Assembly (NCBI GenBank): GCA_965203355.1
Contig: OZ241889.1
Location: forward strand, 3,872,001 to 3,936,000
DNA: 64,000 nucleotides
Origin: Candidatus Latescibacterota bacterium
Lineage (GTDB): Bacteria > Latescibacterota > UBA2968 > UBA8231
Direction of reading: 5' to 3'
The position numbers were made by a program, and so were the translations under genes. The notes below the pieces were generated by a model that searched no databases, was not told the DNA's origin, and was given only the letters and a program-made list of their open reading frames with translations. Below are positions 3,516 to 60,634 of this stretch, in pieces; within the stretch, counting starts at the first letter, position 1, and each line of letters starts with the position of its first letter.

Positions 3516-4775
3516 ATGCCCATCCTCTTTGCCCTAGCCCTGGGTATTCTCGCCCTGCTCCCGGCCCGCGCCGAGCAGATCCTCGTGCCCATGGACACCT
3601 CCCAGCGCGACCATCTCCGAGCCTACGGCCTCGCTTTCTGGACCTTGGAGCGCGGCATTCCGGTCGAGTGGCTGCTCAACTACCGCGGCGGCTCATTCCT
3701 CGTCGCAGCACACGCCCTCATCGCCAGCGAAGCCACCCTGCGCGGCATCAGCACCGAGCGCATCTCCGCGGGCCAAGCCGCCCAGCTCTACGCGGAGATC
3801 GACGCCTCCAACATGGAAGTCGTGCGGTTGGAAAAGGTGCCGAAGATCGCCGTGTACACACCTCCCAACAAACAGCCCTGGGACGACGCCGTGACCCTCG
3901 CGCTGGAATACGCCCAAATTGACTACGAAAAAATCTGGGACGACGAAGTGCTCCAAGGCGCACTCGCCGACTACGATTGGCTACACTTGCACCACGAGGA
4001 TTTCACCGGCCAGTACGGCAAGTTCTATGGCTCCTACAGCAATCAGGCTTGGTACCGCGAGCAGCAAGCCTCGTACGAGCAGATGGCACGCCGCCTCGGC
4101 TACGCCAAGGTCTCCGAACAAAAGAAGGCCGTAGTCGTCAAAATCTACGAGTACATGGCCGCGGGCGGCTTCCTCTTCGCCATGTGCTCGGCCACCGACA
4201 CCTTTGACATCGCCCTCGCCGCGCTCAACGTGGATATTTGCCATGCCGTCTTCGACGGCGACCCCGCCGACCCCGACGCCCAAGCCAAACTCGACTTCAG
4301 CCGCACCGTGGCCTTTGAAAACTTCGTCCTCAAAACCAATCCGCTCGTGTACGAATTCTCAACCATCGACACCACGCCAGACGACATGCGCCGGGTCCGC
4401 ACGGCCGAGGCCGAGTATTTCACGCTGTTTGAGTTTTCTGCCAAATACGACCCGGTGCCGACGATGCTCACTCAGTGCCACACCAACATCGTCGATGGCT
4501 TCCTCGGCCAGACCACGGCCTTCCGCCAGGCACTGATCAAGGACTCGGTCATCCTCCTCGGCCAAGAAGAAGGCACCGACAGCGTCAAGTACATCCACGG
4601 CCGCGTCGGCAAGGGCACCTTCACCTTCTACGCCGGCCACGACCCAGAAGACCACAAGCACCACGTCCACGACCCGCCGACCAACCTCGCCCTGCATCCC
4701 AACTCGCCTGGTTATCGGCTCATTCTGAACAACGTGCTCTTCCCAGCGGCCAAGAAAAAGGAGCGCAAGACCTGA
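3516..4775 (+). CDS. Conserved exported protein of the family often mis-annotated 'asparagine synthetase B' (class I glutamine-amidotransferase-like)
   Basis: ATG at 3516 with signal peptide. Motifs WLLNYRGGSF, QPWDDAVT, DWLHLHHEDFTGQYGKFY, FAMCSATD, HPNSPGYRLILNNVLFPAAKKK. Confidence 0.75.
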   Translation: MPILFALALGILALLPARAEQILVPMDTSQRDHLRAYGLAFWTLERGIPVEWLLNYRGGSFLVAAHALIASEATLRGISTERISAGQAAQLYAEIDASNMEVVRLEKVPKIAVYTPPNKQPWDDAVTLALEYAQIDYEKIWDDEVLQGALADYDWLHLHHEDFTGQYGKFYGSYSNQAWYREQQASYEQMARRLGYAKVSEQKKAVVVKIYEYMAAGGFLFAMCSATDTFDIALAALNVDICHAVFDGDPADPDAQAKLDFSRTVAFENFVLKTNPLVYEFSTIDTTPDDMRRVRTAEAEYFTLFEFSAKYDPVPTMLTQCHTNIVDGFLGQTTAFRQALIKDSVILLGQEEGTDSVKYIHGRVGKGTFTFYAGHDPEDHKHHVHDPPTNLALHPNSPGYRLILNNVLFPAAKKKERKT

Positions 4776-13540: not shown

Positions 13541-14011
13541 ATGAAACTCAGCTCAAGCGAAGAATACGGCTTGCGCTGCCTCTTGCAACTGGCTCGCCAA
13601 ACCCCGGGCAGCCTGACCATTCCGGAGATCAGCCAAGCCGAGGGGATCACCCATCACAACGTCGCCAAGCTCTTGCGCATTCTCCGGCAGGGCGGCTTTG
13701 TGGCCAGTGCCCGCGGCCAGCAAGGCGGCTACGCCCTCGCCAAGCCCCCGGACCAAATCGCCGTGGCCGACGCGGTCGCCGCGTTGGGCGGTCGCCTCTT
13801 CGACGCCGGTTTCTGCGATCACTTCGCCGGCAGCGCGGATTGCTGCACACACTCGCTGACGGCGTGTTCGGTGCGTGCGCTGTGGGAGCAAGTCCAGCAG
13901 GCCGTCGATCGCATTTTATCGCGCACCACCCTCGCCGACCTGCTCGAACAGGGCTACGCCCTCGCCGACGAAGAGGCGTTGCTCGATATATCGGAGAGTA
14001 CGCTGCGATGA
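13541..14011 (+). CDS. Rrf2-family transcriptional regulator (IscR/SufR-like, Cys-containing)
   Basis: EYGLRCLLQLA, wHTH with SARGQQGGYALA, and a C-terminal Cys cluster (FCDHF..DCC.H...CSVRALW); last gene of the suf cluster. Confidence 0.9.
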   Translation: MKLSSSEEYGLRCLLQLARQTPGSLTIPEISQAEGITHHNVAKLLRILRQGGFVASARGQQGGYALAKPPDQIAVADAVAALGGRLFDAGFCDHFAGSADCCTHSLTACSVRALWEQVQQAVDRILSRTTLADLLEQGYALADEEALLDISESTLR

Positions 14012-15513
14012 AAAAGGTCTTGCTGTGCTGGATCGGTGGAAAAGATTTGGATGCCTCACAAGGAAAAGATGTTGGCGAGGGTCCTATTGCACAGGCCGTA
14101 GAAAAACGCGGGTTTGACGAAGTATTTTTGATTTCAGACTACTCGCCCGACCGTGTAACTGCGTATGTCGAATGGGCTAAGAAAAGGAGCTCGACGCCGT
14201 ACCAACTACGCAGGGTGAAACTTTCAAGCCCGACTCACTTTGGCGAAATCTATGAGGCCGCGAGGGATGTGTGCAAAAAGGCTTTGGGCGACCAACCTGA
14301 TCAAGTCAAATTGACTTTTCACCTTAGTCCTGGTACGCCGGCGATGGCGGCGGTGTGGATCCTCCTAACGAAAATGGGCTTTCCCGCTAAATTAATCGAA
14401 TCTTCAAGAGAGCACGGCGTTCAAACGACGTCTGTTCCCTTTGAGATTCAGGCAAAATATCTGTCCGATCTACTGGCCAAACCCGACGCACAACTCCGCT
14501 CGGCCAGCGCAGGAAAACCCGCAGAAACGGCAGCTTTTGGCGACATAATCTACCGCAGTCAGAAGATGGCGGATTTGGTCGAAAAAGCGAAGCGAGTCGC
14601 AGTGCGGAACGTTCCCGTTTTGCTCGAAGGCGAGTCCGGCACTGGGAAGGAACTTTTTGCCCGCGCCATCCACAAACATAGCCTAAGAAAGGATAAGCCA
14701 TTTATCGCGGTGAATTGCGGTGCAATACCGCGCGATCTGGTGGAAGCCGAACTGTTTGGACACAAAAAAGGCGCGTTTACCGACGCACATGCTGAGCGTA
14801 AAGGTCATTTTGAACAGGCCAATGGCGGTACGCTCTTTTTGGATGAAATCGGCGAGTTACCCAAAAATATGCAGGTGAAATTGTTGCGCGTCCTCCAAGA
14901 AGGCGAGTTCCTCCCCCTCGGTGCATCCACACCCACCAAAGTAGATGTACGCATTGTGGCGGCGACAAATCGGAATCTCGTTGAAGAAGTACGCGAAGGA
15001 CGATTTCGAGAGGACTTGTTTTATCGGATTGTAGTGGCTTACCTCAAACTGCCGCCTTTGCGGGGCCGCGAGGGCGATTTGGGCATGCTGATCCGCCATT
15101 TTATTGATAAAATCAATCAGGAATACGAAAAGGAATACGAAGGACAGCCCGGTTACAAACGTAAAGAAATTTCCCCTAACGGAAAAAATGTTCTCATAAA
15201 CCATTCTTGGCCGGGCAATATACGCGAGTTGGAAAACACCCTGAACCGCGCCATGCTGGCCGACAGCAAAATTCTCGACGAACAAGATATTGAAGATGCA
15301 CTCTTACGCATCGACCATAAGGGCGGCAAAGATATACTGAATCGCCAGTTAGGTGGGGATTTTAACCTAAAGAAACTCATTAGCGAGGTCGCAAGGCACT
15401 ATCTTAAGCGAGCCGACAAAGAATCTCAAAACAACAGAACAGAAGCCGCAAGACTGTTAGGACTTCCCTCTCGTCAGACGTTTGACAACTGGAAGGAGAA
15501 GCACCAAGCATAG
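14008..15513 (+). CDS. Sigma54-dependent enhancer-binding protein with an N-terminal CARF/RtcR-like sensor domain
   Basis: ATG at 14008 overlaps the rrf2 stop. N-terminal VLLCWIGGKD...LTFHLSPGTPAMAAVWILL is RtcR/CARF-like. AAA+ motifs GESGTGKE, GAFTDA, LFLDEIG, RFREDLFYR, WPGNIRELEN. Fis-type HTH NRTEAARLLGL. Confidence 0.88.
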   Translation: MKKVLLCWIGGKDLDASQGKDVGEGPIAQAVEKRGFDEVFLISDYSPDRVTAYVEWAKKRSSTPYQLRRVKLSSPTHFGEIYEAARDVCKKALGDQPDQVKLTFHLSPGTPAMAAVWILLTKMGFPAKLIESSREHGVQTTSVPFEIQAKYLSDLLAKPDAQLRSASAGKPAETAAFGDIIYRSQKMADLVEKAKRVAVRNVPVLLEGESGTGKELFARAIHKHSLRKDKPFIAVNCGAIPRDLVEAELFGHKKGAFTDAHAERKGHFEQANGGTLFLDEIGELPKNMQVKLLRVLQEGEFLPLGASTPTKVDVRIVAATNRNLVEEVREGRFREDLFYRIVVAYLKLPPLRGREGDLGMLIRHFIDKINQEYEKEYEGQPGYKRKEISPNGKNVLINHSWPGNIRELENTLNRAMLADSKILDEQDIEDALLRIDHKGGKDILNRQLGGDFNLKKLISEVARHYLKRADKESQNNRTEAARLLGLPSRQTFDNWKEKHQA

Positions 15514-15527
15514 ACATTTGGCAAAGC

Positions 15528-15543
15528 TGGCACGGAATTTGCT
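15528..15543 (+). promoter_or_regulatory. Sigma54 (-24/-12) promoter
   Basis: TGGCAC-GGAAT-TTGCT matches TGGCAC-N5-TTGCW exactly, with GG-N10-GC spacing, 14 nt after the stop of the enhancer-binding protein gene. Confidence 0.85.
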
Positions 15544-15611
15544 TCTCTTCTATCAAGGATATGAAGCGAGGCTCAAATCACCCACCACCCGAAAGAGAAA
15601 GGAGAAATCTA

Positions 15612-15698
15612 ATGCAAAATGTGCTGCCAGCCATACTAGTTTCATTGGCTATATATGCCGGTCAACGCATCATTGATAAGATCGTTGATGGGCTTTAG
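15612..15698 (+). CDS. Small hydrophobic peptide 1, 28 aa (MQNVLPAILVSLAIYAGQRIIDKIVDGL)
   Basis: AAGGAG 7 nt before the ATG; frame conserved with its paralog at 15779. An in-frame upstream ATG at 15561 is an alternative start. Confidence 0.65.
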   Translation: MQNVLPAILVSLAIYAGQRIIDKIVDGL

Positions 15699-15778
15699 CA
15701 CGTAGCTCAACAGCTCGCTGGGCAGCGTCAATTCGTTGCCCAATCACCCATCACCCCAAAGAGAAAGGAGGTAATCTA

Positions 15779-15856
15779 ATGTTGCCAGCGATATTAATTC
15801 CACTGGCTATATATGCCGGTCAATGCATCATTGATAAGATCATTGATGAGCTTTAG
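15779..15856 (+). CDS. Small hydrophobic peptide 2, 25 aa (MLPAILIPLAIYAGQCIIDKIIDEL)
   Basis: AAGGAGGT SD; paralog of peptide 1 with frame and stop codon preserved. Confidence 0.65.
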   Translation: MLPAILIPLAIYAGQCIIDKIIDEL

Positions 15857-15869
15857 CATATAGCCAATA

Positions 15870-15905
15870 TCTCGCTGGGCAGCGTCAACTCGTTGCCCAG
15901 CGAGA
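15870..15905 (+). other. Stable RNA hairpin after peptide 2
   Basis: TCTCGCTGGGCAGCG-TCAACT-CGTTGCCCAGCGAGA forms a 15-bp stem with one G:U pair. There is no U-tract, so it is not a classical intrinsic terminator. Confidence 0.7.
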
Positions 15906-15940
15906 GTGCCTTCGTCTAAACCAAACAGAAAGGACTGATT

Positions 15941-16099
15941 ATGGCGCGAAGAACACGCGACGACGCACGGATAAGAACAGTCGAGAAAAAGCTGGGAATC
16001 GGGAACAGCCTCACGAATCCCAACGGACGCAATGCCCGTTCCGATAAAAAACTGGGGAATCTCCGTAAGAGTTGGGAAAAGTCTGGTAAGAAGAAATGA
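15941..16099 (+). CDS. Small basic protein, 52 aa (MARRTRDDARIRTVEKKLGIGNSLTNPNGRNARSDKKLGNLRKSWEKSGKKK)
   Basis: AAAGGA SD before the ATG. Internal repeat RDDARIRTVEK / RSDKKLGNLRK. Below the size cut-off of the ORF track. Confidence 0.65.
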   Translation: MARRTRDDARIRTVEKKLGIGNSLTNPNGRNARSDKKLGNLRKSWEKSGKKK

Positions 16100-16135
16100 A
16101 GTGTCGCAAAATCTATAATGAAAGGAGGTGATTCT

Positions 16136-16219
16136 ATGATAATATGGCAACCGACAGGCCCTTATATCGCTCTTGCCATCTTAAAATCATTATACAAATG
16201 GCTGGCGAAGCGGCGATAG
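16136..16219 (+). CDS. Small Fst/Ldr-like membrane peptide, 27 aa (MIIWQPTGPYIALAILKSLYKWLAKRR)
   Basis: Very strong SD AAGGAGGTG. A Pro-led hydrophobic helix is followed by W-L and a basic tail, as in type I toxin peptides. Confidence 0.62.
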   Translation: MIIWQPTGPYIALAILKSLYKWLAKRR

Positions 16220-16229
16220 CAGTTTGTGA

Positions 16230-16271
16230 TTCTATCAGGGGGTGGAGATTTACCTTCGTCTCCTGATAGAA
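16230..16271 (+). terminator. Hairpin closing the small-gene array (possible terminator)
   Basis: TTCTATCAGGGGGTGGAG ... CTTCGTCTCCTGATAGAA pairs fully on the + strand if G:U is allowed; followed by ATTTCTT. Confidence 0.55.
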
Positions 16272-16339: not shown

Positions 16340-17935
16340 ATGGCTATTAAATCTATAACCATAGAAAATTTCAAGGGCATCGGTGACGCCGTGACCATTC
16401 CGATTCGCCCGATCACTTTGCTGTTTGGTAAAAACAGCTCGGGTAAGTCAACAGTGTTGCAGGCCCTGTTATACATGTCACACGTAATAAAATACGAGGA
16501 TCCAGATCCATATAGTACAGATATAGATCGAGGTTATATTGATCTAGGTGGTTTTTATTCTTTAGTACATCGTCATGAATTGGATCGGAATATTCGCATC
16601 CGTATTGAATTCGGCGGTCAAGACCTTGAAAGATTTTATGAAGCTGAAGGTCCTTTTTTAAAGGGGTTACGAGACCCTATCCGTCGTGACTTGTACGGAT
16701 ATCTAAAATCCGTGTGGATAGAAGTTGTAACAGGTTGGAATGCTGAAAAAGATTATACCGAGGTGCTGTCGCTCAGCTTGGGCTTGAATGGAATAGAGTG
16801 GTATTGTAAAACAAATAAAAGACCGGAGATATTTCCTTCTATAAATACAATTGGATCGAATCGCACACAATGGGTTAGTAACCACGGTAGATACGACGGT
16901 ACCAATTATTATAATATTGAGCACCCCATCATTATCGATAATGTAGACAATAAAATGAAGCAAAACATTTTATTAGCACTCACCACTAGGAAGCTAGCCA
17001 AAGATCTTGATCCTCTGTTAGCATCTATACGTCACTCGTATTATAGTATCAGAGATAAGCTGATAAAAATTGGAGTAAGCGTATCGACCAGTATAAGATA
17101 TTTGGGACCAATCCGAAAATTACCCCCTCGCAACTTTGCCCCACAAAAGACACCTAATGAATCAAAATGGGCAACAGGACTAGAGGCATGGAACATACTT
17201 GGTAGAGAAAGAAAATCTCTGATGATCGAAAGTATAAACTACTATATGAAAGATATTTTGAAGCTCGGTTACACTATTAAAAGAAAAGAATACATCTTGC
17301 TGGATATAGATAGCAAGATCATGAAAAACATGGAAGAATCTGACAGCATTAACCGATTAAAAGAGTTACCTCGCCAAGTTAGACTGAAGCTCCACAGCGA
17401 AAAGAATGACGTTGATTTAGATCCCTTAGATGTCGGTTTGGGAATTTCCCAAGTTATTCCCGTTTTGGTGGGAATTAAAAATTTTGCTACGAAGAATATT
17501 TTTGCTGTCGAAAATCCAGAGATTCATCTTCACCCTGCCGCCCAAGTCGCTCTAGGCGACGTGTTTATTGATAGCAAAAATCCAAACAATACTTTACTCA
17601 TTGAGACGCATTCTGAACATCTGTTGTTGAGATTACTTCGACGTGTGCGCGAGACCAATGTTCGTATCTCAGAAAAGTATGATAAGCTGGTAAGGGAAAG
17701 GCGACAAAATTCAATAAATCCTATAGATGAAGATGAGATGCTAGAGCTGGATATTCGTTCTAGGGAATCTGAGCATCCATATCACCACTTAGAGCCAGAC
17801 GATTTATCAATAGTCTATGTCATGCCAACATCAGAGGAAGTCAAGTTAACTCTATTTACTGTAACAGGTGACGGCGACTTCGAAGAACTTTGGCCAGAAG
17901 GCTTTTTTGAAGAACGTATGGAGGAGCTTTTCTAA
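16340..17935 (+). CDS. ABC-type (AAA_15/AAA_21-like) ATPase with a C-terminal DUF3696-like segment
   Basis: IKSITIENFKGI; Walker A GKNSSGKS; YLGPIR; signature DVGLGISQV; Walker B VENPEIHLHP; H-loop IETHSEHLLLR; C-terminal WPEGFFEE. AT-rich. Confidence 0.88.
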   Translation: MAIKSITIENFKGIGDAVTIPIRPITLLFGKNSSGKSTVLQALLYMSHVIKYEDPDPYSTDIDRGYIDLGGFYSLVHRHELDRNIRIRIEFGGQDLERFYEAEGPFLKGLRDPIRRDLYGYLKSVWIEVVTGWNAEKDYTEVLSLSLGLNGIEWYCKTNKRPEIFPSINTIGSNRTQWVSNHGRYDGTNYYNIEHPIIIDNVDNKMKQNILLALTTRKLAKDLDPLLASIRHSYYSIRDKLIKIGVSVSTSIRYLGPIRKLPPRNFAPQKTPNESKWATGLEAWNILGRERKSLMIESINYYMKDILKLGYTIKRKEYILLDIDSKIMKNMEESDSINRLKELPRQVRLKLHSEKNDVDLDPLDVGLGISQVIPVLVGIKNFATKNIFAVENPEIHLHPAAQVALGDVFIDSKNPNNTLLIETHSEHLLLRLLRRVRETNVRISEKYDKLVRERRQNSINPIDEDEMLELDIRSRESEHPYHHLEPDDLSIVYVMPTSEEVKLTLFTVTGDGDFEELWPEGFFEERMEELF

Positions 17936-17937
17936 CA

Positions 17938-18945
17938 ATGATCTATGAATATGCACTGGATCCCGAACTTGTTGTAACATGGAGTTCTGAAGATTGTGAC
18001 TACTTCATCGACAAGTTTGGCTTTGATAGGGATGGCAACGCAACAGGTCGCATAATATCTAAATATCCATATCCTAATAATAACCGCGACATAAGTTGGG
18101 ATAATATAGTTAGCAAAACGCTCAAAAGAACTTGTCGTACTAGTAAAGAAAAAAAAATCATAGACGTGTTATTGGAAGAAATAAAAAAGGAAAAAAGGAG
18201 TATCACTCGTTCTATTACATCTAGGGATTGGGATCCGAATAAATCATGGCTTGAAAACGCCGAGGCTGAGCAGGAAGCAAATATTAACCGTCCTTTTCGT
18301 GCGATTCTTGCCCGTGAAAACCCAAGAAAAAAAGACTACGTGATTACTAATACAAGGCCTGCGTCCCTCAAAGATCAATCGCCTTGTCTTTGGCGTGTAT
18401 CGAGAGGAATAACCATAGCTCGAAGCACAAAGGTAATGGCAGAGTGCTTTGGTCCAATACTGAGATGTGCAACTTTAATCCTTTTTATAGATCCAAATTT
18501 CGATCCAAAAAAGTCTAAATGGAGAAAACCGTTGAGAAAATTCCTAGAAATTATTTATGATTCAAAGCATCGTGGTGTCATAGTTCAATACCTTACCTCT
18601 AAGAAAATATTTAGTAGCCAAAATGTATGTCAATGTGAATGGAATCTTTTTTGCAAAAAATGCAAATCCCTCAAGGAATACGTTGGCTCTGGATGTGATC
18701 TAATCGTCTGCTGTCTTAACAAAAGAAATAGTGATCAAGAACTCCATGACCGATTTATCCTTACTAACATTGGTGGGGTAACGATAACTTACGGTTTAGA
18801 TATTGGTAGAGGTAAGAATAACATCCATCTTATGGACAGAGAATCCTACAATACTCATTTTAAGCTGTATCGTACACATGTTGAGAAGGAATTTGAGTGT
18901 AAAAAGTGGATGGACGACTCGCGACACTCGAAATCGACATCCTAA
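17938..18945 (+). CDS. Hypothetical ATPase partner with a C-terminal HDRFILT motif (PLD-like nuclease fold candidate)
   Basis: 335-aa AT-rich ORF starting 2 nt after the ATPase stop. FIDPNFDP and LHDRFILT...G...GLD motifs resemble single-motif PLD-like domains. Confidence 0.65.
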   Translation: MIYEYALDPELVVTWSSEDCDYFIDKFGFDRDGNATGRIISKYPYPNNNRDISWDNIVSKTLKRTCRTSKEKKIIDVLLEEIKKEKRSITRSITSRDWDPNKSWLENAEAEQEANINRPFRAILARENPRKKDYVITNTRPASLKDQSPCLWRVSRGITIARSTKVMAECFGPILRCATLILFIDPNFDPKKSKWRKPLRKFLEIIYDSKHRGVIVQYLTSKKIFSSQNVCQCEWNLFCKKCKSLKEYVGSGCDLIVCCLNKRNSDQELHDRFILTNIGGVTITYGLDIGRGKNNIHLMDRESYNTHFKLYRTHVEKEFECKKWMDDSRHSKSTS

Positions 18946-29309: not shown

Positions 29310-30434
29310 ATGCCCTACGACATATCACCCGAAAAAAGAGACTGGTACCGGGCCATTTCGGCGCGATCCAGACAGCGAAAAAAAGCGGCGGTCCGCGGTG
29401 CGTTCCAATGCGATCCAAGCGGAATTAATGAGCCAGTCTTGAACCCAAAGGGACTAATGCCCCAACAGCGACAACAGGGTTTGAGAGCGATGTCCCTGTT
29501 TTCAGGAGGTGGCGGTCTGGACCTCGGTTTTGAGCAGGCCGGTTTTGAGCATATTGCCAGTTTCGACGCGCTGGAGATTTGCGGTGCTACGCTGCGGCGA
29601 AACCGATCGCAATGGAAGGTTTTTTCTGGTCCACATGGCGATGTAACAAAGGTCGATTGGACGGCCTATAAAGGTGCCGTCGATCTCATCCACGGAGGCC
29701 CGCCATGCCAGCCTTTCTCAGTTGCCGGAAGACAAAATGGGAGTGAGGATACTAGGGATATGTGGCCGGCGTTTATTGACGCCGTGATGACTGTCAAACC
29801 CGATGCGTTCGTAGCTGAAAACGTTCCGGGCTTACTCGATCCCAAGTTCAATAAATATGTACATAAGGTGATTATAGAGCCGCTAGAACCAAGTTATCAC
29901 ATCGCCAAATTCAAAGCTGTTGCCTCCGATTTTGGCGTTCCTCAGGTACGCAAGCGGATCATTTTCGTCGGCTTTAGATCGCCCAAAGCAGCTAGTGAAT
30001 TCGAGGTTCCGCAGGCAACGCATTTTCCCAACGATAGTCTGTTTTCATCGGGCCGATGTACGTTGGGAGCGAGGGCGGCTTTAGGTCTAGACGATATGGG
30101 CTTCGATTGCTTTGCGCCGACGCTCCGCTCTGGTTTTACTGGTCCGAGAAAGACGACTAGCATTCTAAATAGTAAGGCTGGTCAAAAAGTCTGGCAGAGG
30201 CTACAGATTTGGCCGAATGGCGTACAAAAATCGAGAGAGGAAGCCGTTATGTTCCCACCAGAAAATGGACATTTTAGGCTTTCCGTCCAAGACTGTGCTC
30301 TGCTACAAGGGTTTCCGGCAGATTGGCTCTTTGAGGGTGCTGTGTACCAGATTCTTGGGCAGATTGGCAATTCCGTTTGTCCGCCGGTGAGCTATGCTAT
30401 CGCAAAATCAGTCGCGAACGCATTGAGGGCCTAA
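29310..30434 (+). CDS. DNA (cytosine-5)-methyltransferase
   Basis: SLFSGGGGLDLG, GGPPCQPFS, ENVPG, PQVRKRIIFVG, LQGFP, QIGNSV. Confidence 0.95.
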   Translation: MPYDISPEKRDWYRAISARSRQRKKAAVRGAFQCDPSGINEPVLNPKGLMPQQRQQGLRAMSLFSGGGGLDLGFEQAGFEHIASFDALEICGATLRRNRSQWKVFSGPHGDVTKVDWTAYKGAVDLIHGGPPCQPFSVAGRQNGSEDTRDMWPAFIDAVMTVKPDAFVAENVPGLLDPKFNKYVHKVIIEPLEPSYHIAKFKAVASDFGVPQVRKRIIFVGFRSPKAASEFEVPQATHFPNDSLFSSGRCTLGARAALGLDDMGFDCFAPTLRSGFTGPRKTTSILNSKAGQKVWQRLQIWPNGVQKSREEAVMFPPENGHFRLSVQDCALLQGFPADWLFEGAVYQILGQIGNSVCPPVSYAIAKSVANALRA

Positions 30435-31135
30435 TGACTGTCCAAGACGATAGCCGAGAAAAGGAAATGTGTCAGCTATTGGGCTTGAAAGAGGGGGCAG
30501 GCCGTTCCGGGGTGGACGCGTTCTTTGAATTTGTAGCGAATGGGGCACTTTACTCTGTACCGATTGAGCTTAAATCAACGACGACAGGTTCTGTTTCAAC
30601 TGCAAGGGATGTAGGACCTACCCATATAGCAAAGTGGCGCTCCCGAATATGGGTTTTCGGTTTTTACAACTCTTCGGGAACCTCCCTACAGAAATTGCTC
30701 GTACTTGGGCCGAATGAGATGGAAAGTTGGATAGGGGAAAAAGAGCAATACATTAAACCTGATTTTGTGATAGGAGAGCGCGTTGCGGAGAAGCTTGATT
30801 TTGAAGACTTATACTTTATATGCTCAGAAAAGAGCAAGTACAGTTTAGAGGATGCTAGGTCTCTTCACAAAAAACAGTGGAACCAAGAGAAGTATCGTTC
30901 AGAAATGGATGATGCCGATGGTTATACTCCTGCGAAAATGCTCGAAATTCTCAAGTCGCGAGCCATTTATCTTAATCAACGCGGTTCAACCCTAAACAAC
31001 CCACACATCCCAAAGTCGTTCTTTGCACAATTCAGGGACCGGATGATCGACGTTGTACATATCGACGCAGATGATCGTGCCACTATCCACCAAACGCTAC
31101 GCAACATAACGCTGGCTAACAAAACCGGGCAGTGA
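30434..31135 (+). CDS. Putative type II restriction endonuclease, partner of the C5 methyltransferase
   Basis: TAATG translational coupling to the methyltransferase. VDAF...IELKSTT is PD-(D/E)xK-like. AT-richer than the flanks. Confidence 0.7.
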   Translation: MTVQDDSREKEMCQLLGLKEGAGRSGVDAFFEFVANGALYSVPIELKSTTTGSVSTARDVGPTHIAKWRSRIWVFGFYNSSGTSLQKLLVLGPNEMESWIGEKEQYIKPDFVIGERVAEKLDFEDLYFICSEKSKYSLEDARSLHKKQWNQEKYRSEMDDADGYTPAKMLEILKSRAIYLNQRGSTLNNPHIPKSFFAQFRDRMIDVVHIDADDRATIHQTLRNITLANKTGQ

Positions 31136-33454: not shown

Positions 33455-34408
33455 CTAATCGGCGTCTTGTTGGGCTTTATATTGCTCTTCTTGTTCGAGT
33501 AATGTCATTTGTGTAGGTCCTTTTGATTGATCTGGATAAAGGGCCTCAACAGACCTTTCAAAATCACTAAGAGCATTCTCATGGCCACGCAGAAACCAAT
33601 GTTTATGATTTTCAAGATACGCCTTTCTAATAGGCTCGTTACGCAAATCAAGAGGGACACGTTCCATTCTTGGATCTATACTATCGAATCCTACAAACTC
33701 TTTTTGCAAGCGTTTTTTCGCCATTTTTACATAGTCTGGGTTTAATTCAATTCCGACGCCGACTCGATTGAGTTGTTGACATACTCTGAGCGTCGTTCCA
33801 CTGCCTAAGAATGGATCGAGAACTAGTGATCCTTCACTGCTTGAAGCTAATATCATCCGCTCCATTAGCCCTTCCGGTTTTTGAGTCGGGTGATTCTGTC
33901 TATTATAACTACAGTAATGAACGTGCGAAAATTCCCAAACATCTCCTGGATTTGCTCCTCGCATATTGTTACGCTCGCGGTAATATTTTTGAGGTACGCG
34001 AATATCATCTAAGTTAAAAGTGAAATCTCTTGTTTTTGTGAACATTATAATATCGTCGTGTCGAGGGGAAAAGCCTCTCTTTTTTCCTATTCCCTGCGTA
34101 TAGTGCCACACTATCCAGCTATTGAAAAGCATTCCAAGATCTCTAGCTAAGAGGTCATACAGAGAAGAAATAAATCGGAATCCCATAAAAACATAAATCG
34201 TTCCATCGGCCTTTAGAAGACGATGAGCTTCTTTGATCCAATCCTTCGAGAATGCTGAATATTCTTCAAAATCTTTAGTGTCACGATTATTACCATAGTC
34301 TTTCCCTAGATTGTAAGGAGGATCGGCAATGATAAGATCAAAGACCTCGGAGTCGATCTTTTGCATCTCAGAGACGGCGTCTCCCAAGATTATTTTTTGT
34401 TCAATCAT
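33455..34408 (-). CDS. DNA N6-adenine/N4-cytosine methyltransferase (beta class)
   Basis: ADPPYN precedes HPTQKP and VLDPFLGSGTT; AT-rich. Confidence 0.93.
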   Translation of the reverse strand: MIEQKIILGDAVSEMQKIDSEVFDLIIADPPYNLGKDYGNNRDTKDFEEYSAFSKDWIKEAHRLLKADGTIYVFMGFRFISSLYDLLARDLGMLFNSWIVWHYTQGIGKKRGFSPRHDDIIMFTKTRDFTFNLDDIRVPQKYYRERNNMRGANPGDVWEFSHVHYCSYNRQNHPTQKPEGLMERMILASSSEGSLVLDPFLGSGTTLRVCQQLNRVGVGIELNPDYVKMAKKRLQKEFVGFDSIDPRMERVPLDLRNEPIRKAYLENHKHWFLRGHENALSDFERSVEALYPDQSKGPTQMTLLEQEEQYKAQQDAD

Positions 34409-35126
34409 CGGACTTTATCCATCCATTTTTATTAGCCAGTTCAAGCCATTGATCGAATGATCGTCGACCAGACTGAAGATATTTCTGATCAAGTAACTGA
34501 CAAAACTCCCATGTGGTTCTTGCTTCAAGTTCAACGTAGTGAATATCTCGTACTTGGACTTGTCCCGTTCCAAGCGCAGGATTATAGTTTATATCCCTTG
34601 AAGACAAATATTTGAGATCATAAGCATTATACGAAATAACCTCCATAATTCCGTCCATTAACCCTGTAGTTTTGCTACGCTTCGAATATACGCGGTGTTT
34701 TAGAGAAAGAATGACGAATATGTAATCGGGATCTTCAACATAGGCAGTGCGAATACGAGCGTATGAAGTGATATTCGGGGACTTTCCACTAGATTCTATA
34801 TCCTCTGATGTTGCCTTAACATCAACTTCTGCTGTCACGCCACTTTCAAATTTTCTCTGCTTTTGAAATTGTAGTATGATATCCGCCATATTTAGACGCT
34901 CAACTGCTTCCACATTAATCAATTGATATTTATTATTATTATCTTCAAGGACATAATGAAACGTTTGAGCAGCCCATGCTTCAATAAATGGTCCAGCGAT
35001 CTTATTGATATTCTCCATCGGGAGACCGAACTTTAGATTTGTATTGATAAGAATTTTATTTTTCCCCTGTTCAATAGCTTCTTTGAGGAAGGTGTCGAGT
35101 ATGTACGCCGCGTCGTCACGCGACAC
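34401..35126 (-). CDS. Putative type II restriction endonuclease
   Basis: Overlaps the methyltransferase start by 8 nt. MADII...EVDVKAT is PD-(D/E)xK-like. AT-rich; GTG start. Confidence 0.72.
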   Translation of the reverse strand: MSRDDAAYILDTFLKEAIEQGKNKILINTNLKFGLPMENINKIAGPFIEAWAAQTFHYVLEDNNNKYQLINVEAVERLNMADIILQFQKQRKFESGVTAEVDVKATSEDIESSGKSPNITSYARIRTAYVEDPDYIFVILSLKHRVYSKRSKTTGLMDGIMEVISYNAYDLKYLSSRDINYNPALGTGQVQVRDIHYVELEARTTWEFCQLLDQKYLQSGRRSFDQWLELANKNGWIKSDD

Positions 35127-40376: not shown

Positions 40377-46042
<5,666 letters not shown>

Positions 46043-46046
<4 letters not shown>

Positions 46047-59285: not shown

Positions 59286-60368
<1,083 letters not shown>

Positions 60369-60462: not shown

Positions 60463-60634
60463 GTGTTTTTTCATTGAAGCAGATTAAACTGCGCTAGCTA
60501 CTTGTAACAAATGCCGTGCCAAACGGCAAAAATACGCGCAATTTATTGTTTAATAATGGGTTAGAAAAAGAATGAAAAGGGTGCAAAAAGCAAAAACTGG
60601 CAACTACGCGAAACAACACTGTGAAGAAAAGGGG

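Follow-up and report, generated by a model that had tools for sequence, protein, structure and literature searches.

Two tandem copies of a gene for a very small hydrophobic peptide lie behind a sigma-54 promoter in the genome of Candidatus Latescibacterota bacterium (GenBank assembly GCA_965203355.1, contig OZ241889.1). The window, the whole stretch of DNA analysed, is 64,000 nucleotides long (positions 3,872,001 to 3,936,000 of the forward strand), and coordinates given without a locus label refer to it. Positions 15576-15905 consist of two head-to-tail units of 166 and 164 nt, each with one open reading frame (ORF) for the peptide, called peptide A here. The locus is made up, in this order, of a gene for a CARF-domain activator, a sigma-54 promoter that is paired with the activator in related genomes as well, a cluster of small ORFs with a structured end, and a defence cargo. 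The position of the two copies behind this promoter and activator, at the head of a fast-evolving phage-defence locus, suggests, without proving it, that their products are inducible, membrane-acting peptides. The explanation tentatively preferred is that the units encode translated peptides that insert into the membrane once the CARF/sigma-54 switch has turned on their expression; in form they would be like type I toxins, but no known family contains them. The two units would be paralogous copies of one translated micro-gene (22-28 residues), the product having about 17 hydrophobic residues at the N-terminus and a charged amphipathic helix of about 10 residues at the C-terminus. The features on which this explanation draws are the following.

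14008-15513, + strand: enhancer-binding protein of 501 aa with CARF, AAA+ (sigma-54 activator) and HTH domains, from PADLOC, Pfam and structure matches
15528-15543, + strand: sigma-54 (-24/-12) promoter, 15 nt after the activator stop, exact 16-nt extended consensus
15576-15741, + strand: first repeat unit, made up of a leader that includes a ribosome-binding site, the ORF and a shortened stem-loop, from the repeat and sequence reading
15612-15698, + strand: peptide A copy 1, 28 codons and stop, 10 of 15 residues hydrophobic, net charge 0
15719-15742, + strand: shortened stem-loop of unit 1, 9 pairs, -17.6 kcal/mol, z = -4.4
15742-15905, + strand: second repeat unit, made up of a leader that includes a ribosome-binding site, the ORF and a full stem-loop, from the repeat and sequence reading
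15779-15856, + strand: peptide A copy 2, 25 codons and stop, 11 of 15 residues hydrophobic, net charge -2
15870-15905, + strand: full stem-loop of unit 2, 15-16 pairs, 6-nt loop, no U-tract, -31.5 kcal/mol, z = -7.1

Tandem units, promoter and activator

A repeat finder run on the window returned three collinear direct-repeat blocks of 29 nt (15576-15604 and 15742-15770, 93% identity), 85 nt (15622-15706 and 15780-15864, 87%) and 35 nt (15708-15742 and 15865-15899, 91%). Adjacent segments that match at 87-93% are far beyond chance. The start-to-start spacing of these blocks is 166, 158 and 157 nt, respectively, and therefore a 9-nt indel lies near the start of the ORF. Both ORFs have a GGAG-type ribosome-binding site 6-7 nt ahead of the ATG, and Nei-Gojobori counts over 25 aligned codons give 4.0 synonymous and 6.0 non-synonymous differences between them. 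The stem-loop of unit 2 is not equalled in stability by any of 200 shuffled sequences; that of unit 1 is reduced to 9 pairs because the duplication junction falls inside its 3' arm. Probes from the ORF core and the hairpin found no third copy in the 64 kb at up to 2 mismatches.

Much of this had been read from the bare sequence in a preliminary description, which proposed a tandem duplication of about 165 bp with the frame retained; the repeat blocks and the two ORFs bear it out. Its translations of both peptides are exact, the synonymous codon pairs that it listed (GCC/GCG, CTA/TTA and TTG/CTG) are all present, and so are the conservative aliphatic (V/I) swaps, the in-frame 9-nt indel and the preserved Shine-Dalgarno sites. 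Folding agrees with its statement that the hairpin is complete in unit 2 and shortened in unit 1. It was right about the duplication but overlooked the decisive context, the sigma-54 promoter and CARF-domain activator directly upstream.

The promoter has GG at -24 and GC at -12 at the fixed spacing and is the only exact consensus match in the 64 kb; at up to one mismatch there are five matches, compared with 2.4 expected. The peptide gene units are placed 70 nt downstream, and from this promoter transcription is expected to start near 15553, which puts copy 1 about 58 nt further on. A sigma-54 promoter drives no transcription unless its activator is present. The pairing of this kind of promoter with the activator gene extends well beyond the window. 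Locus counts in this study rest on the best 80 of 430 genomic relatives (species-level genomes), and totals of 81 are those plus the window. Among the 73 related loci whose activator ORF is intact (seven with the ORF broken or cut by a contig end were left out), 58 have an element of the -24/-12 type within -6 to +60 nt of the activator stop, compared with 36 of 4000 random windows (0.9%). The strict consensus is found behind the activator in 20 of the 73.

A partial second -24 element is seen directly upstream of the -24 box in the window (15514-15543) and in the related loci L001 (5498-5545) and L002 (5504-5554). In distant relatives (e.g., L026-L029, L041, L063 and L077) the -24 element begins on the last base of the activator stop codon, and the -12 element of distant relatives is often TTGA, not TTGC. 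Sites with one mismatch to the consensus also occur between the recA-like and radA-like genes of the window (60338-60353 on the + strand and 60506-60521 on the - strand). The gene rpoN is not found within the 64-kb window.

The activator is matched over residues 2-500 of 501 by the PADLOC model RtcR_PspF2--CARF_AAA_HTH (E = 3.6e-195), and other CARF models in PADLOC match residues 1-134 (Csx1/Csm6, E = 4e-7; CARF4, E = 1e-11). Pfam detects Sigma54_activat (E = 1.9e-72), AAA_lid_14 and a C-terminal HTH_28. The AAA+ core matches the solved structures of NtrC1, ZraR and PspF, and the translation has a GAFTGA-type loop with one substitution. The protein scores below the RtcR cut-offs of both NCBIfam (353 versus 650 bits) and Pfam (18.7 versus 23.1 bits), and no RtcA or RtcB gene was found downstream. 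Judged by its sequence, it is RtcR-like and not RtcR proper. At E ≤ 0.001 the database contains 2680 relatives of the CARF-like N-domain; an N-domain alignment of the window sequence with 5 of 120 listed relatives yielded the 430 confirmed genomic relatives.

The start of the activator gene (14008-14011) overlaps by 4 nt the stop of an upstream gene for an Rrf2-family regulator. This regulator gene is at the end of a suf (Fe-S assembly) operon, and the same ATG/stop overlap occurs in L001-L005 and L007 (region about 3997-4003). Six related genomes have the island in this position, an arrangement that suggests that it is co-transcribed with the suf/Rrf2 unit or translationally coupled to it.

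Peptide A as a coding gene and as an RNA

Peptide A has two copies in the window and a single copy in each of L001, L002 and L003, so that 4 of 81 loci (3 of the 80 relatives) contain it. A profile made from the two window peptides recovers the three syntenic copies with E values of 2e-15, 1e-12 and 9e-6 among 18,343 stop-to-stop segments. The ATG, the GGAG-type ribosome-binding site and the frame are kept in all five copies, the 9-nt and 3-nt indels among them are in frame, and the reading frame is the only open one. Across 23 columns, variation is seen at 14 first, 5 second and 11 third codon positions; the second position being least variable fits a hydrophobicity that is kept. Synonymous divergence is 0.22-0.62, similar to that in neighbouring genes (0.25-0.40), and the ratio of non-synonymous to synonymous rates (dN/dS), which ranges from 0.15 to 0.92, is below 1 in nine of nine informative pairs. 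The paralogues have diverged about as far as orthologues (0.22 at synonymous sites, compared with 0.25 for the activators of the window and L001), with both ORFs still open. From this sequence evidence, which comes from four genomes and about three independent lineages, translation of peptide A is likely.

The ORFs could also be fortuitous, i.e., a functionless peptide read from a duplicated non-coding leader whose duplication is possibly without function too. Their length of 25-28 codons, the few lineages, a marginal selection test and the lack of a database homologue are all in keeping with this. Against it stand the retained start, ribosome-binding site and frame, the two indels that are multiples of three, and the two paralogues that remain open at a divergence equal to that of orthologues, so that chance ORFs are improbable.

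The composition of the peptide resembles that of known small toxins in part. Fozo et al. 2010 (PMC2887945) describe candidates for type I toxins as proteins of 16-70 aa with a predicted membrane stretch; in short proteins, 10 or more residues out of 15 have to be I, V, L, F, C, M or A. The five peptide A copies have 10, 11, 9, 10 and 10 such residues, and four of the five pass. The N-terminal half is uniformly hydrophobic (Kyte-Doolittle mean 1.8-2.2), and the helical moment is maximal over the last 11 residues (0.59-0.92). Pfam has no match at E ≤ 10 for four of the five copies (the two of the window and those of L001 and L002) or for three sibling peptides, and NCBIfam and PADLOC have none for the two window copies. 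A PHROGs scan of the small ORFs gave a single match (E = 0.023) to a family of unknown function. With copy 1, tblastn found no match in plasmids and six phage records, all at E ≥ 0.8, which are taken as chance.

Several observations weigh against translated, membrane-inserting peptides. When alignment columns are shuffled, 101 of 2000 trials reach the observed ratio of non-synonymous to synonymous differences (pN/pS), and the +1 frame, which is closed, has a ratio as low as that of the real frame (0.32 versus 0.44). A 4-nt insertion in L003 shifts the frame three codons before the end of the ORF and L001 stops earlier, so that each loses the last 2-3 residues, while the DNA beyond stays conserved; the C-terminal tail is judged dispensable. 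Conservation is higher in the stem-loop than in the ORF; the spacer that contains the stem-loop is 85-91% identical, a figure that stands against a synonymous divergence of 0.25-0.40 in the neighbouring activator gene. The hydrophobic stretch is short and contains two prolines. Membrane toxins usually have cationic ends, and the full-length copies have a net charge of 0 to -2. A search with an alignment of peptide A found no homologue among 5.8 billion predicted proteins (12-79 residues), and none of its five copies is represented there. In addition, L004, L005, L007 and L020 run the same module without peptide A, which is confined to its 4 of 81 loci, and L006, L008, L009, L011 and L012 run it without any small ORF.

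The stem-loop itself has invariant stems in the four full copies, with variation confined to the loop and the closing pair; compensatory changes are seen in none of the 16 pairs. It is a strong hairpin with no T-run after it, does not conform to the intrinsic-terminator rule and is unlisted in the terminator scan. No alternative (antiterminator) pairing was found for it. The RNA hairpin is judged to be independently functional. Two other interpretations were considered and rejected. An attC-like recombination site of integrons does not match the core-site consensus by eye. A sigma-70-like promoter predicted at 15831-15859, in the 3' end of copy 2, might have accounted for the nucleotide conservation of that part but is altered in relatives, where the L003 insertion changes the spacer and L001 differs in the -10 hexamer.

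An alternative is a cis-acting leader, in which it is mainly the RNA that matters and the peptide sequence is secondary. The stem-loop and leader ORFs would then tune read-through, shield a long 5' leader from Rho, or set transcript stability. The invariant stems and the conserved spacer (neighbouring synonymous divergence being 25-40%), the tolerated C-terminal truncations and a codon test that is marginal and not frame-specific all favour it, as do the position of the units in the leader of an operon whose relatives do without them and the second, covarying hairpin that ends the cluster. However, the peptide A hairpin lacks both an antiterminator pairing and a U-tract, copies that differ at 29-62% of synonymous sites still share the hydrophobic pattern and a C-terminal motif of five residues, strong ribosome-binding sites are kept as well, and the sibling small ORFs (peptide B and a basic protein) are clearly conserved as proteins. 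A leader role in place of a peptide is less likely than the preferred explanation but is a serious rival to it. If it were correct, the units would illustrate how a sigma-54 defence operon can have a modular 5' leader, which is of narrower interest.

The preliminary description had inferred selection on the peptide and proposed to compute dN/dS across further copies. The ratios agree with it in all nine pairs; the codon-level signal is marginal (101 of 2000 shuffles) and not specific to the frame. Frameshifts or stops in homologous units, or conservation of the RNA structure and not the ORF, were named there as findings that would tell against such selection. Both are seen in part: L003 and L001 have the insertion and the earlier stop but keep the start, ribosome-binding site and hydrophobic pattern, and the better-conserved stem-loop goes together with an ORF that is nonetheless open in five of five copies. 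The amphipathic C-terminal segment that it described is reflected in the helical moment, and the transmembrane check that it recommended is answered by the four copies that pass the rule of Fozo et al. 2010. Its comparison with type I toxins holds for form only; neither an antisense partner nor homology to a toxin family was found. The likeness to phenol-soluble modulins does not hold, the N-terminal half being uniformly hydrophobic, not amphipathic, with no family model matched.

Each of these two comparisons corresponds to an alternative explanation. One or more classical type I toxin-antitoxin pairs with a translation-blocking antisense RNA would account for genes that are short, hydrophobic, tandem and unannotated, the features searched for by Fozo et al. 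2010 (PMC2887945). However, no sigma-70-like promoter was found on the minus strand between 15430 and 16400 (a search based on sigma-70 rules that may not be those of this phylum), no Rfam match at E ≤ 1 occurs between 13500 and 19500, and there is no homology to toxin families at E ≤ 10. The genes are also not isolated in an intergenic region but come first in a sigma-54 operon, which already provides tight control, and antisense-regulated pairs are very improbable. Secreted or modified peptides, whether phenol-soluble-modulin-like, a pheromone or the precursor of a ribosomally synthesised and post-translationally modified peptide (RiPP), are the least probable of the explanations considered. 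Small tandem peptide genes beside a regulator do occur in such systems; here the N-terminal half is not amphipathic, there is no conserved Cys/Ser/Thr pattern, and the sensor domain of the regulator is a cytoplasmic nucleotide-binding fold. A RiPP precursor was rejected, since no modifying enzyme, protease or exporter was found in the island or its flanks.

Companion small ORFs and the defence island

Downstream of the tandem units the small-ORF cluster continues to a terminator-like hairpin, which is followed by two long genes.

15941-16099, + strand: very basic protein of 52 aa, net charge +12, own ribosome-binding site, in the same sigma-54 transcription unit
16136-16219, + strand: second small hydrophobic ORF, 27 codons, divergent positional counterpart of peptide B (from position and likeness of the end codons)
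16230-16271, + strand: terminator-like hairpin followed by a T-run, end of the small-ORF cluster, -24.2 kcal/mol, z = -4.3
16340-17935, + strand: ATPase of the AAA_15 / ABC type, 531 aa when counted from the conserved ATG (Pfam AAA_15, E = 1.6e-27; AAA_21)
17938-18945, + strand: protein of 335 aa with a phospholipase-D-superfamily (PLD) fold and an HxR variant of the HxK motif, from a structure model and Foldseek

The basic 52-aa protein is syntenic in 6 of 81 loci with a dN/dS of 0.08-0.45, and is better conserved than the activator (identity to relatives 83-92% versus 72-74%). Database homologues number only 17; they are 56-90% identical to it, and none is named for a function. Pfam, PADLOC, NCBIfam and PHROGs contain no family match, a protein atlas places it in unnamed clusters, and its structure model is uninformative (predicted local distance difference test, pLDDT, 59.9). 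The protein contains an internal short repeat. An ORF of 118 codons on the minus strand (15794-16150) was rejected as a gene given the dN/dS of the 52-aa plus-strand gene that it overlaps.

Peptide B is a 24-residue hydrophobic family that is more widespread than peptide A. Its profile matches 7 of 81 loci (L001 5961-6035, L002 6018-6092, L004 5701-5775, L005, L007, L013 and L020) and does not match the window variant; the ORF at 16136-16219 has the ribosome-binding site and the codons at both ends in common with peptide B of L001, but its middle is longer and different. Two of the 81 loci contain a further family, peptide C. In peptides B and C basic ends flank a hydrophobic core, and the net charge is +2 to +5. 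All small ORFs of the cluster have strong ribosome-binding sites. The closest relatives of the window, which share this type of cluster, are metagenome-assembled genomes recorded as Latescibacterota or Gemmatimonadetes. Only L004 (5893-5982) and L007 (5880-5978) have a third small ORF between the hairpin and the ATPase gene, with 29-32 codons, a hydrophobic core and a net charge of +5.

The closing hairpin conforms to the intrinsic-terminator rule (GC-rich hairpin plus U-run), and 6 of its 14 pairs have compensatory changes across eight loci (the window and seven others). In L006, L008, L009, L011 and L012 both the small ORFs and this hairpin are absent and the promoter leads straight into the ATPase gene; the equivalent stretch was folded for L006 and L011 (z = 0.55 and 0.29). 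A conserved -35-like hexamer follows the T-run in the same eight loci. It is a candidate for a separate sigma-70 promoter of the ATPase gene; in L004 and L007 the extra small ORF is inserted between the hexamer and that gene.

The ATPase is matched in PADLOC by NsnB (E = 4e-44) and AriA (E = 8e-31). The model of the 335-aa protein has a pLDDT of 88.8 and a predicted template-modelling score (pTM) of 0.88, and Foldseek relates it to PLDs, Nuc (1byr, TM 0.62), MITD1, Zucchini and NucT with E values of 1e-5 to 1e-3. H270 and R272 are invariant in 62 sequences. The family has 1087 representative homologues and is without a Pfam or PADLOC model; the protein atlas returns unnamed clusters and a 17% MIT_C lead. 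The NsnB/AriA-like ATPase and the PLD-fold protein look like an uncatalogued defence pair. More generally, the first long gene behind the promoter, sampled at 31 of 74 loci, is a type I restriction R subunit in 17; others include an AAA_15 ATPase, an HsdM N-domain, TPR proteins and unknowns. A cargo rich in R subunits agrees with the report that RtcR-like CARF activators head defence superoperons (PMC11090510).

The activator, small ORFs and effector pair form a low-GC island (about 14.0-19.3 kb; GC 0.39-0.52 against a background of 0.58-0.68), which is low in GC also in the four relatives checked (L001, L002, L004 and L005). In L001-L005 and L007 the upstream proteins SufS, SufU, SufT and Rrf2 are 89-97% identical to those of the window. 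Identity in the same six genomes is 72-74% for the activator, 40-46% for the ATPase and 30-35% for the PLD-fold protein, with synonymous divergence of 0.16-0.26 in sufS and 0.25-0.40 in the activator gene. A hypervariable island next to conserved flanking genes is a pattern typical of defence loci. Small ORFs are gained and lost at this site between sister genomes (L001-L007 and L020 compared with the window). No membrane protein encoded in the island was found, and neither a CRISPR gene nor a cyclase gene was found in the 64-kb window.

Modulation or anchoring of other components is the role of many bacterial proteins with 20-50 residues, and peptide A could be a translated, non-toxic small membrane protein that does the same for the ATPase/PLD pair or for a host membrane complex. 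The evidence for translation and membrane character serves this explanation as well as that of a membrane-perturbing peptide, and the neutral or acidic net charge and the co-transcription with larger defence proteins favour it. However, the presence of peptide A tracks no single partner, the ATPases of peptide A loci being only 40-46% identical, and the island encodes no membrane protein. Such a modulator or anchor is less likely than the preferred explanation; like the leader role, it is a live rival.

Elsewhere in the window, two low-GC islets (29310-31135 and 33455-35126) each have a DNA methyltransferase (C5 and N4/N6, respectively) beside a protein of 241-252 aa without a family match; these are probably restriction-modification pairs. 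An ORF of 1889 aa at 40377-46046 has two sets of UvrA interaction and DNA-binding domains and is a doubled UvrA-like protein.

Proposed mechanism and relation to known systems

If the peptides are membrane-inserting products of the CARF/sigma-54 switch, the following sequence of events may be proposed. The CARF domain would sense an infection or RNA-damage signal, either RNA ends with a 2',3'-cyclic phosphate (by analogy with RtcR) or a cyclic oligonucleotide. By analogy with RtcR (PMC9650030) and with a proposal made in PMC11090510, the ligand-free CARF domain would hold the AAA+ domain inactive, and ligand binding would free it and open an otherwise silent sigma-54 promoter. The first products of the fired promoter would be a burst of micro-peptides together with the basic protein, and read-through of the hairpins would add the ATPase/PLD pair. 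The peptides would enter the inner membrane and, side by side with the ATPase/PLD module, perturb it, with depolarisation, growth arrest or abortive infection as the outcome. The stem-loop behind each copy may stabilise the peptide message or partly terminate it. The duplication may have arisen via a 4-nt microhomology in the 3' arm of the hairpin and would raise the dosage of the peptide or diversify it.

A more specific version is that the CARF activator fires a terminator-bounded mini-operon of sub-30-residue membrane peptides and the 52-aa protein, kept silent by promoter logic and not by antisense RNA. It is possible but held with clearly less confidence. If true, it would be a transcriptionally wired counterpart of CARF-pore fusions such as Cam1, and the tandem copy together with the rapid gain and loss of peptides would represent an arms race at the level of effectors.

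Several known systems share parts of this scheme. The type I toxins of the Ibs/Sib, Ldr/Rdl and ZorO type (PMC2887945) are, like peptide A, unannotated ORFs of fewer than 30 codons whose products have a single hydrophobic stretch and end in a polar, charged C-terminus, and they too occur as tandem duplicates with similarity beyond the coding region. Peptide A differs in that no antisense RNA or homology was found and control is apparently transcriptional (sigma-54 and the CARF activator). Its genes head an operon, and its C-terminus is acidic or neutral, not basic or aromatic. The phenol-soluble modulins share a length of about 20-25 residues and an amphipathic helical segment; in peptide A only the last 11 or so residues are amphipathic, no family match exists, and taxon and regulation are different.

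TisB of E. coli is a stress-induced peptide that depolarises the membrane (PMC11997105). It is made only after a damage signal, under control of LexA and the IstR-1 antisense RNA, and its action results in depolarisation and dormancy. With about 29 residues, a hydrophobic character and Asp/Lys in the helix, it resembles peptide A, which would likewise be made from a promoter switched on by a signal. Unlike peptide A, it has no link to a defence island, CARF or sigma-54, and there is no sequence similarity.

On the regulatory side, the RtcR-RtcBA system (PMC9650030) likewise has a sigma-54 promoter that is gated by a CARF-AAA+-HTH activator and adjoins the activator gene. The window differs in its cargo, which does not consist of RNA repair enzymes, and in its promoter, which comes after the activator gene, on the same strand. 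The CoCoNuT superoperons (PMC11090510) have the same activator architecture at the 5' end of co-directional defence genes. The available part of that paper describes no cluster of sub-30-residue ORFs as the first cargo, and the module of the window, an AAA_15 ATPase and a PLD-fold protein, is not CoCoNuT. A precedent for CARF sensing coupled to membrane depolarisation is Cam1 (PMC10808066). With Cam1, Cap1 and Chp1 of type III CRISPR systems (PMC10808066; 10.1101/2025.11.13.688252; 10.64898/2026.08.05.743128) the locus would share the logic of CARF sensing that leads to a membrane effect. In those proteins sensor and pore are one polypeptide activated by cyclic oligoadenylate, whereas in the window sensing would act through transcription, on micro-peptides that are separate from the sensor. 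In the portions of the literature searched, neither sigma-54 or RtcR-like control of small toxic peptides nor a cluster of sub-30-residue ORFs as the first CARF/sigma-54 cargo was found. The activator family, its link to defence operons and tandem micro-toxin genes are already known; the peptide A family is unannotated.

The regulation of phage defence is poorly understood, and genes of fewer than 30 codons are invisible to annotation. Six close genomes, with flanks 89-97% identical, the same island site, diverged effectors and 0, 1 or 2 copies of the peptide, provide a clean natural experiment. If peptide A is indeed an induced output of the CARF/sigma-54 switch, toxin-like small genes would be controllable without antisense RNAs, and CARF signalling could be routed through transcription to membrane-acting micro-peptides.

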